A stretch of DNA of 62,753 bases, the filler included, from Choristocarpus tenellus KU-1152 (Eukaryota; Protista; Phaeophyceae), in the NCBI GenBank assembly GCA_964200185.2. It is 7 parts of 7 records of this genome, joined end to end, with 100 filler letters (N's around TTAATTAATTAA, not from the genome) between each part and the next. Parts side by side here need not be neighbours in the genome. Positions count along the whole stretch, not along the records: positions 45,055 to 51,087 come from CAXNAD020009111.1; 6 more parts are not named here. One strand, 5' to 3'. The notes under the pieces are model-generated. The model saw only the letters and a list, made by a program, of their open reading frames with translations. It ran no database searches and was not told the DNA's origin. The position numbers and the translations under genes are program-made. Each line of letters starts with the position of its first letter. Position 1 is the stretch's first letter. Below, piece after piece: positions 13,905 through 51,087 of the stretch.

Positions 13905-16900
13905 ATGTTTGAAATTCCCATCAAAGTCAACTTTCGAGGAGGTGAGCGATCAACCGAACGCTGTTGGTTTTGTGATTGGTCACATGGTAACTGCAATGTG
14001 TAGGTCCACTTTAAGCTCGGTGATTTTACGTCTGGGTCTTATGAATTACCATGATGACTACACGAGTTTAAAATACATTAACCAAATCCCGTATGTATCT
14101 GTTATCCGCAGAGTTCAGACGATTCTGGTGGCGAACAGATACCCTCCAGGTCTACAAGCTCTTGTACTGTCTCTGCGATTTTTTCCCAGAACTCAAGGAG
14201 TTGTCTGATAATGGCATGGCCAACAAGATCCGCATCAGCTATAACGACACGGTGAGGTTTTCGATGTGGTGTTGTCGGTTATTTGGAGGAAAATGAGGTG
14301 ATAATGGAGATTGAACCCTGTTATCATGCAAATATTATAGAATTCTTCGAAAAAACAGGTTGAACTTCCTCGAAGTATCCTTTTCTGTTTGCTCTCTTTG
14401 TGATCTAGTTCCCTTTCCTTAGGCTACTTGCCCACCCTCCCCTCGTTTCCAGGATGGTGACGAGGTCCATATCCTGCTAGACATCGGCCTACATGAAGCA
14501 GTGCGACTCAACATGAGTGAGGAAACTCTGCGCCTTAAGGTCACTCTGGCTGACGATAAGGCCTCACCAAATCCTCAACCAACTAGGCCCTCGCCATCGT
14601 CAACTTGTCGAAGCCAGCAACCCATGGGCTCCATTGGTGACCCGTCAACTACGTCATCTCCTGCACCTCCTGCAACCTCTCCTAGTATTCCTTCGGCACC
14701 TGGTAACCTAGGTTCAACTGCGCAGCCAACCACCCCTGCTTCGTCTGCACTCGAGGAAGTTCTCCCGTGTGTTCTGGACGCGCTCAGCAGGTACAACTAT
14801 GCGACAGAGCTGATGCCCCAACTCGTCCCAGCTATGATGGTAGCTGCAGCTGGCCTGAGAGGAACGGATAATACAATTCCTTCTGTGGTAGCCTCTGTCA
14901 TTGCTGCTGCTGCTTCAACCATGTCCAATGCTTCGGAGGTCGCCGATTCTCCAGCTGCCACTGAAAGGTCTAACACACCTGCTGACACAGCACAGGCTGG
15001 TCCAGAACCATGTGAGACAAGCGTAAGTGGAGGAGATGGTGCCTCCCCGGACCAGAGTACGGGGAGTCCGGGTGTATCTGGCTCCAGAGCTGGACAAAAT
15101 GTCCCTTCTTCATCTGTCCATGATGGTGTGCAGTGTGACGGGTGTCATGTATGCCCCATTATTGGAACACGGTACAAGTGTGCGGTGAGGTCCGACTTTG
15201 ATCTTTGTGAGGTGTGCGAGACCAACTCCACAGGGCCGTTCCCCATGCTGAAGATTCGTCACCCAGCACAGGCGCCAGCTTCCATAGTATGTGTACTGCG
15301 GCCAGATCAGCCAAGCACATTGGAAGAGGCCTCTGAGATGGACTGGCGGAAGTTGATGGGTCAGGTGAAACGAGGTGGGAAGAATGGTAAGGGTAGTGCA
15401 ACCTGTGCAGGCCGTTGGGGTGGTGGAGGCAGTTGCCGTCGAGGTCGCAAGCCTTCACGGATGTGCAGCAACAACACACTGGAGATGGGCCAGGTCCTAG
15501 CGGCCATGGCAGCAAGCTGTGCACCCAACACTAACAACAACCTTCAAAATGCAGACTTCATCCGATTCAGTGGACTCAGCGCAGAGGGACACCCAGTGCA
15601 CACAAACACCAACGAGAAGGCGGTAGACACAGAATCAGGATCCAGTGCGACAACACAACTCAGCTATGATGACACCCCTGCTCATGACTTTGAGGCTGTT
15701 ATGGGAATCCCAGTTGACCTGGCCTCTTCTACATCTTCATCTTCCTCCTCGAGTTCATCTTCCTCCTCGAGTTCATCTTCCTCCTCGAGTTCATCTTCAT
15801 CCAGTTCATCTTCAACCTGTTCGTCTTCATCCTCTGCTTCCCACTTAGCCACGCCCATAGGTACTGGTCAGGTTATCAACCTCTTCCCCACTTTCGTGGG
15901 AGATGTTGACAATGCAATGGAAGGGACTGTACCTAGAGAGCAAGAAGCACAGCAGGAAAAGACTGCTGTCGCAGGTGGTGACCATCCAACGGAAACCCCT
16001 GAGAAACCCCAGATCGCCCCCAGCAGCGATCCCAAGACGTCCGAGGAAACAGAAGATGCTCTTCTTGCTGCTTCCATACGCTCTCTGGCTTCATCCATGA
16101 GTGCCTCGATGATGGCAGGGGACCAGTCTGCCACACAAGACCAGTCTGCTGCACAAGACCAGTCTGCTGCACAAGACCAGTCTGCTGCACAAGACCAGTC
16201 TGCTGCACAAGACCAGTCTGCTGCACAAGACCAGTCTGCTGCACAAGACCAGTCTGCTGCACAAGACGAATCTACTACACAAGCACCAACCCCAGTTGAG
16301 GCTCCAGTTCAGCAATCTGCTCCTTCTAGTTTGCTTGTGGATGCAGGGTCCGACGTGAAATCAAGCACGACCACTACCGGAAAGCTCATGGCTCGGTTTG
16401 TAGGAGATGCGAGTGTTCCAGATGGGAGTTCACTTCCAAAAGATACTCACTTCACCAAGACGTGGGAGATGCGGAATGACGGCGATATGGCCTTTCCTGA
16501 GGAATGCCGTCTCATTCCAGTGGGAGGTGACCTCATGTCTGGCCCAAGTGAAGGCGTCAGGATCGGATCAGCTCTTCCTGGAGAGGATTTCCATGTGAGG
16601 GTGATCATTTTGTAATATCTTGGTTGTCTTAGCATTGGTCCTCCTCTGTTGTGTTCTTGGAGCTTTCTCATTGAGGAAAATTGTTGATCTAGCTTGAAAT
16701 ATGTATCTCCTAGTGCACATTACATATTTTGAGTCTCCAACTACTGATTTCACCGGAGGCTTTCCTTAGAATCATTAATACGTCCACAATCCAACAAAAC
16801 TCTATGGAGGTATAACCACTGTCTAGTCCACCTCCACACATTGGTGGCATCATTCACACTTTCACCCCCCAACTGAAATTCCTTTCTCACACTCTCCTTC

Positions 16901-18502
16901 TGCTAAATCCGTCACGTGGACTGTGATACACGGAGCAGGTGAATGTGCAGCTGACATCGCCCTCTACAAGTGGCAGGTACATTGGCTACTGGCGTCTTTG
17001 TTCACCCCAAGGGAAGAAGTTCGGTCACCGCATTTGGGCTGATATTCGTGTGGTGGAAGACCCAGTCAATCTGCTAGGTGTAGACAGGACGGTTTCACTT
17101 GTGGAGGTATTTGTGACCCCTCTAACTGTTGTCCTTTCTCAAGGTACAGAGGCAGGATGTTTTCGGAGTAGGAATGAATTTTTGTGGATAGGTGGGCTGT
17201 GCTTTGTCTCTGAGTCACCTTTGGTAGAGTAGGGTGGACAGTGCCCTGCTTTGGTTTTTTGCATCATGTTGAGTAGGTATAGTGTTGGTGTCGATATATA
17301 TGCCCATCAGGTTGTTACTCACCCTCTTCTTGTTGCTGTTCCTCACCATTGCATTTTGTGCTATTCACATCCTGTGGTTTTCAATGTACCCCCTATGTAG
17401 CACTTCAGGAAGTGTAGGGTATCAGAAGAAGAGTCCCTTTTCCCTCTCCTTACAGCAATAATGCATGTGGCACTCTTAAAATATTCATGGCCCTGCCTGC
17501 TCATATGATAGGAAACCCAACAACAGTGGTTTTACTTTGGGCAGAAGGGAAGATTTCACAAATGCACATGCATACAGATGCTTGTGTTTCATCTAGCATA
17601 GACAAATGCAAAGCCCACCCATCGCCATTTCTCAATTTTCCTTCTATGGACAGGATTCAGACTGGGATATAGTTTCGCCGGAGCATATCCCCCCATCCAA
17701 GATGATGAACCAAAGTGCTGAAGATCCCAAGGTTTCCTCGCCTGCTAAGGAGGCTGGTGATGTCACTACTGACCCTACCAATGCCCCCCGTTCATATGAC
17801 AACGTTATCAACACTGTTGTCAACACTCCTCCTCAAGGAGAAGAGGAGTCAAAGAGCAGTGATGCTGAGGTTGAGGCTGAGAAAGGGTCCTTTGATACCA
17901 ATCCCTTTGTGGGTGTCCCAGTCTTGGGCCCTGTTGAGGTAGCTAGTGGTGAGGCTGACACGGAAGTCCTGAAAGGTCCGGACTACAACACCCTACCTCC
18001 TCCCTCTTCCTCACCGTCCCCACCTGCACCAACAAGTGATGACCCAGTAACAGCCTCAACCCAGCCCCAACCCTCTTATGGCTTGTACTTAAAGTGGAGG
18101 AGCGAGCTGGGCTCACTCTTGGAGATGGGCTTCACAGACACAACCCGGAACATCAACCTCCTGGAGAAACATCTGTCCATGCCTGGTGGACCTGGTTTGG
18201 ACAAGTGAGATCTAACCCATCCTACATTTGTAGCCCCAATCACCTCTTCAAGCAAGCCCTGCTGTGCAATGACTTGTTTTTTTTTCTGCAGAGGTACATT
18301 ACCTTCACAGTACGGTCAAATCCTATCTATCCTTTGCAGTGGTTGCAGTGTTGGTCGCTGTTTGAGTCTCGATGCTTGCCTGACATCCTGACAACTGGAA
18401 TAACATATCCTGTTGCTTTCAAACTCTTCCTTTTGTTGACACTCTGTTTTATACAGGGTGCTGGACGAGCTGGTGTCATGGCATGAGCGCCGCTTTGATT
18501 GA
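13905..18502 (+). CDS. NBR1: NBR1 selective-autophagy receptor (PB1, ZZ zinc finger, FW/NBR1 domain, LIR, UBA), 6 exons, ~1027 aa
   Basis: Exons 13905-13941, 14112-14251, 14453-16594, 16939-17106, 17654-18204, 18457-18502; phases consistent, 3084 nt. PB1: IPIKVNFRGEFRRF...YNDTDGDEVHILLD. ZZ: HDGVQCDGCHVCPIIGTRYKCAVRSDFDLCEVC. FW: ARFVGDASVPDG..FTKTWEMRNDG...GRYIGYWRL..FGHRIWADI. LIR: DSDWDIV. UBA: ELGSLLEMGFTD..NINLLEKH...KVLDEL. Confidence 0.95.
15733..15830 (+). repeat. Coding poly-Ser tract built from an 18-bp unit (TCATCTTCCTCCTCGAGT) in NBR1 exon 3
   Basis: The unit is repeated three times with degenerate flanks and encodes about 30 serines. Confidence 0.9.
16121..16272 (+). repeat. Coding 18-bp minisatellite (GACCAGTCTGCTGCACAA) x8 encoding DQSAAQ in NBR1 exon 3
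   Basis: Near-perfect in-frame tandem copies, directly visible. Confidence 0.95.
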
Positions 18503-47676: not shown

Positions 47677-48238
47677 GATTGAATGTAACATACGTATTAA
47701 GATCAAGAAAAGGAGCACCGACTATAAAAAGAAAAAAGAGGGGGTTAGTAGTTAGTATGGAGGTAGTCATGGAAAGAAAAGGTTAGGGTTAGGGTTAGGT
47801 CACCCAGGCAACACCCTCTCTCGGGTGGTTGGAAATGAAAATGCAAGGATGAGGTTGTGAGGATCGGGGGGGGGGGGGAGCTCACAAGGTACTTCAGGTA
47901 CACTTCAAAGCTCTTAATCACTAAACGCAACTCGACTGCTGGGCAGAACACAGCTATAGAAACCCGCTCACTCTTCTGTGTGGCCTTTGATGTTATGATG
48001 CAATGATAGTCAGTACACAAGGAGACTGACTATATTCCAAAACAAAAAACGGAGTGCTCAACTGCAAGGCTATGAAGTTGAGACTGGCATCGTGCCTTTG
48101 TGTGGACCATCTCCAATAATACATTCCTCTGTTACTCCTGATTTTGTTTTTTAAGTTGAACCAAGCACAGGCGTGAGTCCTGGCACAGACCCCCCATGTG
48201 GTCCACCTCTCATGCCCGTTCACAACAGAACTGACCCA

Positions 48239-48870
48239 AAGGGTGTCATAACAGTACTACCAGACTCTATGATGCCTCTAGATAATGGTACGCGCGTATT
48301 GATGCTGTCATAGGTAGTACTACACTCTTCAAGAGAGGAACAGCTGGTCAGATCATGGAGTGCTACACCAGTTCCAAGAGTATGGAGGGTGATCCTATAG
48401 TCATCTCTGACCATGTGGTCACAGAGAGGATTGACACTACACCTTCTGTTATAATCGATAACATACCCTCTTGTCACTGTAACGGCCGGGAGGTGTCAGC
48501 ACATGTAGGGAAGATAAGGCTTCTCCAGTCATGTCACATGAGTTTCGATAGGCATCAGCTCACCAGGTACCGTATGAGGATGGACTCTAAGGCACCTAGG
48601 TCTGGTAGGTTGTCTGGTGGAGATGTCAATCTGAGTGAGATGGACATACAGCAGATGGCAGGTAATGGTCTCAGACACACATTGGAGGAACTCCACTGTA
48701 AGGGGAACATGTCAGTAGTGGATGTATGTACAGGCTGTGGATGCATAGCTATGCTATGCGAGTGTGAAGGAGAGCATCCAACAAGGATATCAATGAGTTT
48801 ACCCAGAGATACCATACAGGCAATTACTAGGATGTTGGTTGCTGATGGGATATCTGTGTCTTTCAAGTAG
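48239..48870 (+). pseudogene. Intronless, highly divergent DNA-directed RNA polymerase second-largest subunit (RPB2/beta) C-terminal fragment; probable endogenous viral or plasmid element
   Basis: Removing one extra CG at ~48291 gives KGVITVLPDSMMPLDNGTRIDAVIGSTTLFKRGTAGQIMEC...VGKIRLLQSCHMSFDRHQ...SGRLSGGDVNLSEMDIQQMAGNGLRHTLEEL...VDVCTGCG..MLCEC...MSLPRD...MLVADGISVSFK*. This is collinear with the RPB2 motifs GQKG..DMP..PDIIIN..SRMTIGQLIE, HMVxDK, GRxxxGGxRxGEME, the clamp zinc ribbon CxxC...C and the C-terminal xPY..L.xxGI. Confidence 0.85.
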
Positions 48871-48999: not shown

Positions 49000-50781
49000 T
49001 GTCAAGATTATGCTTAACTAATTATAAGAATATTATTTGAAGTATTATTTTATGTACGCAAAGAAGATAATGTGGAACATTCGGGATATTTAGTCAGGGC
49101 ATTTGATCGGAAGGAATCGACGGACTATTAGAGTCGGAGCGTTTCTGATGGGTAATAGAGAAGAGTTGAGTCATTTGGTATTCTGAGTCTTTCAATGTTA
49201 GGATTGGTGAGCCCCACCTAGTACAGGTATCTCACTCTCTTCTCAACAGTGATACAAGCTAATAAACAATAATATAACTAGTTGTGTGGGACAACAGATC
49301 GTCAAGGACAGCTTAACATGCTATAGCACTCCAATTAAGCGTGCTTGCGTAGTTATTATACTTGGATTTTAGCTATCACCAGGAAGGAGTCAAGATAAAC
49401 CATGATACCCAGATCAAGAATCGACTCAAGTCTAAAATCCATTGATGAGGGAATGGATTAACTGACTATGACCCGGGAGGGGGGTGAGATACATGATGGG
49501 ACATCAGCTTCGCAAGGGGGCGAGGCTAGGGCTGGGGCTAGATATACGGTGGCCATGGGGGTTAGACCCGTATTCACTCCGAAATTAAAAATGTATTCCT
49601 CGAAATAACCTACGTTTAAGGGGGAACCAGGGACGTGGAAGAAATGGAGTAAAACGTTTCTTACGCACGCTCTCTCATCGGGATGGAGGGAGCCATTAGT
49701 TACAAAGGAGCATTTAAGGGTACTGTCGTTGGAGTATTCCCCGGCGGGCGTGGATCTGTATCTGCACCATGCGACGACGCTTGCTATCAATGGACTACAG
49801 GAGGCAACGGCAGGACCTGTGTTGGACATCGTGCTGATGTACGAGTCACCGAGTGAGGCGTTCGCCGCACTGGTGAAGAACTATGCCCTTTCAGGCCAGA
49901 CTGAGAGAAATCTGGCGAAAAGAAAATTGATGGACATGGTACTGGAACCTAGAGGAGATCCTGCGACCATTATTAACCGGCAGGAGGCTCTCATAATGGA
50001 GTTGAAGAGCTTGGGAGGTACCGTCTCTGAGGAAGATCGAGTGGGGTGGCTACAAAATTCACTCAGCGAAGGATATCTGGACATCATGTCACAGATTGAT
50101 GACGAAGAATCGGTGGAAGGAAGGAGCAAATTGGAAAGATTAGTCTTGAAACGATATAGACTTCGATCCATTCAAAGAGGATCGGACTCGGATGGGGTGA
50201 GAGCTGGCGCACTGGTGACTGGACGGCAATCCAGATGAAATGGTGGACAACCAAATTGTTGGGAATGTGGTGGACCTCACTTTCGGTCTAAGTGTCCTCT
50301 CATCAAGAGTCAGAAGGCGAGGGATGGGGGTATTACGTGTCTTGTATGCAGGAAAAAGGGTCATCAAAGCTTCGAATGCCCACAAAGAAAAGTGGGAGCG
50401 TCAAGGGGTCAGGAATCTTTGAACATCCAGAAGAAGAAAAATCGGATGGGGGGAAATGGTTCTAAGAATAAGGGAAGCGGACCAAAGTTGGATGGATCTG
50501 GTGATGTACAACCGAGACTGGCGGGGTTTTCAGTAACGAATCAAGTGCATTATCTTGCTAGTAAGGTAAAAACACTTCCTTTCAAGAGGCCATTATGGGT
50601 TGAGGTTTGGATTTGGGACAGTGGAGCCACACATAATTTAACGACGACCAATAAGAACAAGTTTAATTGGGAATCTTGTGTTGGAACAGTTGAAGTTGGC
50701 GGTGGTGGACCACTTAACATTGTGGGCAAGAGGGACATCCAATTGGAATGTGTTCTGAGTGGTAAACTGGAAACTGTGGTA
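49000..50781 (+). mobile_element. Ty1/copia LTR retrotransposon, 5' part: putative LTR 49000-49318 and gag-protease from 49468, with two nonsense codons
   Basis: TGTCAAG...CTTAACA termini. A single frame from ATG 49468 has TAA at 49606 and TGA at 50236. It contains a UBN2-type gag core (ELKSLGGTVSEEDRVGWLQNSLSEGY), zinc knuckles CWECGGPHFRSKC and CLVCRKKGHQSFEC, and the copia protease WIWDSGATHNLT...VEVGGG. Confidence 0.9.
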
Positions 50782-51087
50782 CAGTACCTATCCCGATTTT
50801 ATGCCAAATATTATGTACCAAAACCCATTTTGTACTGCTTTTTCGACATACTAAAAAAATAGGCTTTTGTACCGGAATTCTCGTATTCGGGCGACTTGGC
50901 ACAAAATCCCAGAGATATTCACGCGAGTTTCTCGCGAAAAGTGCATTTCTTCCTGAGTCATGACCACACAGCAGTACAGTACGTTGCTCGTAGGGAAATA
51001 AAGTGGAAGCCATGCCTTGTGCCGCGGGAAACCTCTGCAATATGCCTTCAAATACGCCGACTCCCCCTATCTACACAATCCACAAGT
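50782..51087. mobile_element. Probable DNA-transposon end inserted into the copia protease region
   Basis: Copia-like coding stops abruptly at TA|CAGTACCTATCCCG. A TA target followed by CAGT is typical of Tc1/mariner/pogo ends. The other end is not on this contig. Confidence 0.4.

Follow-up and report, generated by a model that had tools for sequence, protein, structure and literature searches.

The window, by which is meant the whole stretch of DNA that was analysed (62,753 nucleotides of the brown alga Choristocarpus tenellus KU-1152, gaps included), carries a fragment of 632 bases that corresponds to the last (3') quarter of a gene of the RPB2/beta type and has a single frame break at 48291-48296. 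The features at this locus are the following.

48239..48290, plus strand: initial piece of the RPB2-like fragment, with KG..MP of the hybrid-binding region, from tblastn and a profile match in one frame.
48291..48296, plus strand: run of CG dinucleotides that is the site of the frame switch, from the sequence, its length being polymorphic among samples.
48297..48870, plus strand: main open part of the RPB2-like gene, ending at the natural stop, from the alignment with protein P0001 and the position in the tree.
48297..48870, plus strand: content of this main piece, namely the RxTxGQxxE region, HMxxD, GRxxGG, SEMD, clamp zinc ribbon and last helix.
48727..48765, plus strand: C-terminal Cys4 zinc ribbon of the archaeal/eukaryotic RPB2 type, from the sequence and alignments with the family and PDB.
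49030..50862, plus strand: high-copy repeat followed by a decayed copia gag-pol, neighbours that are not part of the element, from depth and Pfam.

All of the RPB2/beta motifs that a sequence-only reading of this DNA had listed were located on the plus strand of 48239-48870, in the order it gave. KG..MP lies in a single frame at 48239-48280, and a second frame, whose 194 open codons run from 48286 as far as the stop at 48868-48870, contains KRGTAGQIME, HMSFD (48535-48549), SGRLSGG, NLSEMD (48628-48645) and CxxCG..CxC (48727-48765). The first piece has 10 of 14 residues the same as five close relatives by tblastn and matches the profile with E=2.5e-6, in the KG..MP frame only. Homology begins abruptly at the KG lysine (48239); its continuation 5' in another frame was considered, and RPB2 homology was sought upstream of 48239 in all three frames with no match. 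The CG slip and 5' truncation that had been named as the only lesions are both recognisable, as the frame switch and the abrupt start, with the addition that the break is polymorphic, because a contig of one sequencing run (X2) differs in length at the CG run; the other two runs (X1 and X3) agree with the window there.

Searched alone, the open reading frame (ORF) of the window reaches Pfam Rpb2_7 at E=0.017, short of the cut-off, and PDB at a best E of 0.03, with an Atlas feature score of 0.89. The Rpb2 profile match that had been proposed as a check was obtained through P0001, an intact protein of 781 aa on an 11,005-bp public Logan contig, which passes the Pfam cut-off for Rpb2_6 (E=2e-13) and aligns with archaeal Rpo2 at the fork, ED, GDKF..HGQKG, HM..D and GEM motifs. 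P0001 was the sole match to the window ORF (E=3e-59) among 333 longer-protein candidates, its residues 595-781 being 56% identical to it over 189 aa with an identical C-terminal end residue. The window ORF scores 239 bits against a profile of eight relatives from which it had been left out, compared with 6.9 bits for the best of 500 shuffles and -2.6 for the reversed sequence, and on these scores the similarity to RPB2 can be taken as not due to chance.

The ORF stops after its zinc ribbon, with no fused beta' part, and the ED region is absent from the window copy, which starts at the KG lysine. Because three quarters of the subunit are missing, including the metal-binding ED, the fragment would be unable to work as a polymerase and is best regarded as a dead fossil. 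It retains 15 of 18 columns conserved in its family, compared with 16-17 in the six relatives that cover all 18. The alteration to NLSEMD, which had been singled out as unusual, is present but not unique, with SEMD found in 2 of the 67 relatives examined, and the shortened spacers are likewise present but not peculiar to the fossil, as they are common to its intact relatives. The small number of conserved columns lost, together with the occurrence of SEMD and short spacers in relatives, indicates that the donor gene was under selection until recently and that its unusual motifs and shortened spacers were inherited as family traits and did not arise by decay. The GC content of the fragment is 46.5%, even across codon positions, and the ratio of observed to expected CpG is 0.27 compared with 0.47 in the window, a figure that for the fragment comes from only nine CpGs.

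The insertion site was followed in three sequencing runs (X1, X2 and X3) of the same organism, all from one study and one of them possibly the source sample. The left junction is spanned by contigs of each (X1 48174-48750, X2 48174-48749, X3 47715-48631) at a depth like that of single-copy flanks, and X1 contigs continue past the ORF to 49056 in the right flank, tiling at similar depth. The junction at about 48235, for which a chimeric contig had been a concern, is thus not chimeric, and the fragment is single-copy and fixed at one locus in the host chromosome. Minor haplotype bubbles, 4-7% divergent, occur at 48074-48203 and 48721-48851 in runs X1 and X2, with no variant listed in the 577 bases between them, and represent either a second allele or a second copy. 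All five variant letters inside the ORF alter a residue, which is compatible with drift although five are too few to test. A direct or inverted repeat flanking the insertion was sought and none was found, nor was a poly-A tail seen in the sequence at the fragment.

To the right, contig depth climbs from about 15-25 to thousands where the repeat begins at about 49030, and the decayed copia gag-pol that follows it (49609-50862; Pfam Retrotran_gag_2, zf-CCHC and Pol_BBD) has one in-frame stop at 50236-50238. Elsewhere there are exons of an NBR1-like autophagy receptor at 14423-18208 on the plus strand, with a ZZ zinc finger, N_BRCA1_IG and a short tandem AAQDQS repeat, and 18 interstitial TTAGGG dimers between 26542 and 58671, where 0.01 are expected. 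The window therefore carries eukaryotic host features in this gene, the copia element and the dimers. A scan of the window with archaeal and viral RPB1 (the A'' profile, of one sequence, carrying no weight), with the DNA polymerases linked to the family and with the proteins of the viral contig L276, both described below, gave no match.

A search with P0001 finds six close relatives, one of them from Scytosiphon promiscuus, after which matches fall to an E of about 1e-11. At E<=1e-30 a family profile matched 109 clusters among 1.84 billion representatives, and at 1e-10 it matched 780, of which the best 150 were inspected, the classification covering part of them. Ten clusters were looked up for their sources, which yielded the brown alga Laminaria digitata (P0079), the rust fungus Melampsora americana (P0113), the chytrid Clydaea vesicula (P0133) and, as a fourth, a JGI hypothetical protein; the brown-algal records are CAN0048122.1 from Laminaria and CAM9764402.1 from Scytosiphon. 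P0079 is 51-55% identical to the subclade of the window and 38-41% to that of Scytosiphon. Judged by these matches the compact RPB2 family is large and extends over brown algae, fungi and environmental sequence, and the fungal members go beyond what could be seen from the window. No paper describing it was found in the literature searched, in which subscription journals are poorly covered and which included terms or passages of PMC11890097, PMC12993054, PMC13533422, PMC5294986, PMC12142844 and PMC11071308, and the main text of those brown-algal papers that were searched by term does not mention RNA polymerase.

In a tree of 101 rows, the window ORF and 73 family rows picked by coverage form one clade with support of 100, in which the window ORF sits beside P0001-P0004 with support of 99; the family is also one clade in LG+G4 and mixture-model trees. 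The median length of family RPB2 is 810 aa (59 rows, some partial). The catalytic motif is [YF]ED in 57 of 70 family proteins and QED in none; HGQK, also found in 57 of 70, is preceded by a residue other than arginine, with the usual S/T-R-HGQKG in 0/70. The distance from ED to HGQK is 85-110 residues in five family proteins compared with 147-150 in three canonical ones, hence the wall/flap region is cut. An AlphaFold model of family RPB2, made with 63 sequences (pLDDT 81.7), matches cellular and viral RPB2 folds about equally at 12-20% identity, with Foldseek E values of about 1e-32 and two pithoviruses at the head of the BFVD matches. By homology and predicted fold, then, the family is a second-largest subunit (RPB2/beta) of multisubunit RNA polymerase, with the catalytic ED and KG in its intact relatives. 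The fold and motif order are common to the cellular RPB2, RPC2, RPA2 and Rpo2 and the RPB2 of giant viruses, from which the family differs in its length of about 800 aa (1100-1250 in those) and its low structural identity. A family RPB2 that is split by a break and has a simple repeat at its end (L011:62-2103, minus strand) is probably another endogenised copy in a eukaryote.

Compact elements with shortened RPB2 have been described before, as NCLDV-like regions of the moss Physcomitrium patens (Maumus et al. 2014; PMC4083422) and as fungal 'fundsalphaviruses' (Gong, Zhang and Han 2020; PMC7017919). The moss element is reported to be about 13 kb, with capsid and packaging ATPase not found and cytoplasmic replication proposed, and Maumus et al. 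left it open whether such an element is a whole replicon that has no capsid or part of a large virus (PMC4083422). Their gene set includes D5, SF2 helicase, a split RPB1, RPB5, capping enzyme and UDG (PMC4083422, PMC7017919). Like the present family they are compact endogenised DNA elements with an RNA-primed family-B DNA polymerase (PolB) and a shortened RPB2, near pithoviruses. A second compact group of RPB2 (823-924 aa), which the family profile also picked up, keeps QED (5/5), CP..T.E and mostly the N-terminal motif, and a member of it found among 60 loci, L276, is an 820-aa RPB2 on a 35,106-bp IMG/VR contig. L276:1-15988 is dense, with an SF2 helicase, a weak match to a capping enzyme (E=0.02), PolB and a D5 primase-helicase, which appears to be the gene set of the moss and fungal elements, and the L276 element is a candidate free-living relative of them.

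The family and the second compact group are joined with SH-aLRT of 99 under LG+G4 and 94 under the mixture model, in trees without a verified cellular Pol II (P0053 is the best candidate for one). With more rows under the mixture model, the two form a trio at SH-aLRT 99 with L255, which lies on a viral contig of 610,033 bp, the inner order being unfixed. Approximately unbiased (AU) tests on 32 rows, which like the mixture-model trees used reduced row sets, did not reject a family position with Pol III-like (p=0.18), Pol I (0.35), archaeal (0.22) or other viral (0.064) sequences, and so leave its deep position unfixed. The stem of the family is 1.6-2.7 changes per column, and because it is so long, long-branch attraction is possible. 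The PolBs linked to the family score 109 bits against that of the second group and 116-137 against 40 other viral PolBs, so do not seem specially close to the former. In the preferred trees the neighbour of the family would nevertheless be the second compact group, the one in which the moss/'fundsalphavirus' gene set is found.

In the short family loci available no partner RPB1, helicase, capping enzyme, capsid gene or element end was seen. In 5 of 25 proteins scanned, which are the five longest family matches, a PolB lies N-terminal to the RPB2. These PolBs match Pfam DNA_pol_B with E from 9e-22 to 2e-43, compared with 8e-4 or worse for DNA_pol_B_2, and their PDB matches are archaeal, poxviral, alpha and delta enzymes, which indicates that they are of the RNA-primed type; they are 28-38% identical among themselves and 24-29% to other viral PolBs. 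The linkage is seen in the fungal-type branch only, where all four of the five linked proteins that are in the tree are found. A true PolB-RPB2 fusion is doubted; as large deletions occur at the join in three of the five (by eye), as expected of gene-caller joins, we read the two as adjacent genes that gene callers have merged. A PolB also lies within 10 kb of an RPB2 motif in 40 of 60 IMG/VR viral loci (L248-L307; 41 PolB ORFs including that of L276), and this proximity is therefore not unique to the compact family.

For 16 of 17 clusters looked up the longest contig is no more than 27.1 kb, with that of the Scytosiphon cluster being 60 kb, which is weak evidence on element size because most contigs in that collection are short; examples are P0001 at 11.0 kb, P0006 at 9.3 kb, P0107 at 27.1 kb and P0110, P0127 and P0133 at 21-22 kb. 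No family member was found in IMG/VR with the window ORF, P0001, A2, P0110 or a motif pattern as query; a pattern scan of GTDB prokaryote genomes gave three chance matches, none related, and PLSDB gave matches at the level of bacterial rpoB only. A first scan of JGI metagenomes found no family member among 283, and a second found at least 4 family loci among 120 listed, mostly archaeal-type rpoB. Genes beside RPB2 in the four JGI family loci (0.5-3.5 kb) matched nothing, and a proposal that L037:3-512 is an RPB1 C-terminus gained no support from comparisons. Two viral contigs of 107-120 kb encode very divergent beta-like subunits of 1020-1050 aa (L001:7391-10459 and L002:7313-10462), with a motif reminiscent of baculovirus-type LEF-8.

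What had been proposed for the fragment, a non-host, intronless and little-decayed piece of an RNA polymerase-encoding mobile element, agrees with its nearest relatives being intact compact RPB2s, some of them linked to PolB, and we hold it very probable that the donor was a non-host mobile element of this family. Viral DNA fixed in chromosomes and intronless genes are also features of the phaeovirus proviruses of brown algae. The window piece differs from these in being an RNA polymerase subunit, of an unrelated lineage, and the 551-kb phaeovirus element of Undaria is reported to be without both subunits, RNApolA and B (Undaria preprint).

The donor may instead have been an ordinary large capsid-bearing virus, pithovirus-like and divergent or otherwise of the Nucleocytoviricota, that has been seen in fragments. 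Its tree affinity with the 610-kb viral contig and the pithoviruses at the head of the Foldseek list would suit this, as would the many giant-virus inserts, some mimivirid-related, that brown algae are reported to carry (Phaeoexplorer preprint). We think it unlikely, given the scans of IMG/VR without any family member, the small contigs of nearly all clusters and an RPB2 cut to about 800 aa where 69 of 75 sampled viral RPB2 ORFs have 1037-2227 aa. That the family simply belongs to the described moss/'fundsalphavirus' group is suggested by the fungal hosts and by its adjoining a compact group that has their gene set, but is rather improbable. The N-terminal motifs G-x-F-x-I-x-G and I-S-Q-x-L are retained in moss RPB2 (by eye, in the first 400 alignment columns; PMC4083422), whose N-terminus looks by eye like that of the second compact group; these motifs occur in 1/70 and 3/70 family proteins respectively, with the first kept in four of five second-group proteins. 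The family RPB2 is also far more derived, with YED replacing a QED that is found in all five of the second group, and the family has a brown-algal branch, a PolB directly before RPB2 in five members and a rust-fungus member, Melampsora, of which the searched part of the supplement of Gong et al. makes no mention (PMC7017919). This comparison was made through the second group as a proxy, the motifs of the moss protein and published descriptions, and by analogy the family would work like the compact moss and fungal elements but, on one test by motifs, does not qualify as one of them.

A cytoplasmic linear plasmid of the yeast pGKL type, or virus-like element (VLE), would share with the family a minimal two-barrel RNA polymerase, shortened spacers and small element size, and ORF6-ORF7 of pGKL2 are described as having a compact beta with shortened spacers and a large subunit that is a beta-beta' fusion (PMC6211774). 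In the family there is no such fusion, as the zinc-ribbon C-terminus is kept and followed by a stop and the beta' motif D[FY]DGD is absent from every protein of the family search. Protein-primed PolB was not matched in the five linked PolBs, all of the fungal-type branch, which score as RNA-primed and have a spacing between motifs B and C of 47, compared with 49 in an ordinary viral enzyme. With both features tested failing, a pGKL-type donor is disfavoured and seems highly improbable, and of the unrecognised DNA virus or linear plasmid first suggested, the non-host element encoding an RNA polymerase stands and the plasmid in the pGKL sense is not favoured. The nearby copia element and the cellular root that AU tests allow for the whole family might speak for a retrocopy or paralogue, evolving fast, of a host Pol I, II or III subunit. 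This reading has scarcely any probability, as the window ORF is 56% identical to the family whereas cellular proteins matched by P0001 reach at most about 30% (alignments covering over 20%), and in its clade there are proteins from fungi and from environmental sequence with a viral-type PolB fused or adjacent to them. For the window piece itself this reading is effectively refuted by its nesting, with support of 99-100, in the non-host compact clade and not in a Pol I, II or III clade, whatever the unfixed root of the family. Lastly, N gaps in the window (the nearest at about 45000 and 51090) and the origin of all three runs in one study might raise the suspicion of an assembly chimera or contaminant, which against the bridged left junction and the even tiling of X1 into the right flank has a negligible chance of being correct.

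We therefore return to an element of the compact family, and consider it reasonably probable that the fragment is a broken, single-copy 3' piece of RPB2 that was captured by accident from a small DNA element related to giant viruses. Such a donor would descend from the pithovirus-like/moss-'fundsalphavirus' branch of Nucleocytoviricota and is likely to replicate in the cytoplasm, using a DNA polymerase and a stripped-down RNA polymerase that it encodes itself, as argued for the moss element by Maumus et al. (PMC4083422). It would be small and may be without a capsid, this last being put forward only tentatively. It would transcribe its own genes outside the nucleus, which is usually why such elements carry an RNA polymerase. 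A piece of its DNA may then have reached the nucleus and been joined into the chromosome at a break; capture by break repair is suggested because neither flanking repeat nor poly-A tail, signs of an integrase or of retroposition, is present. The fragment is a recent fossil of a real and large lineage. More speculatively, and with about the same reserve as for the missing capsid, this lineage could be an undescribed class of capsid-less cytoplasmic DNA replicons of ~10-30 kb that persist in eukaryotes including brown algae, rust fungi and chytrids, descendants of giant viruses that turned plasmids independently of the yeast killer plasmids, whose DNA polymerase is RNA-primed and whose RPB2 is among the most reduced stand-alone ones known.

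The fossil in the window leads to a lineage of more than a hundred RNA polymerases that are compact and deeply divergent, some of them intact, and would add a DNA element that encodes an RNA polymerase to brown algae. As intact members lie on public contigs of 9-27 kb, the question of whether such elements are capsid-less replicons or pieces of large viruses becomes testable, and the RPB2 of the family gives structural studies a minimal subunit that occurs in nature.
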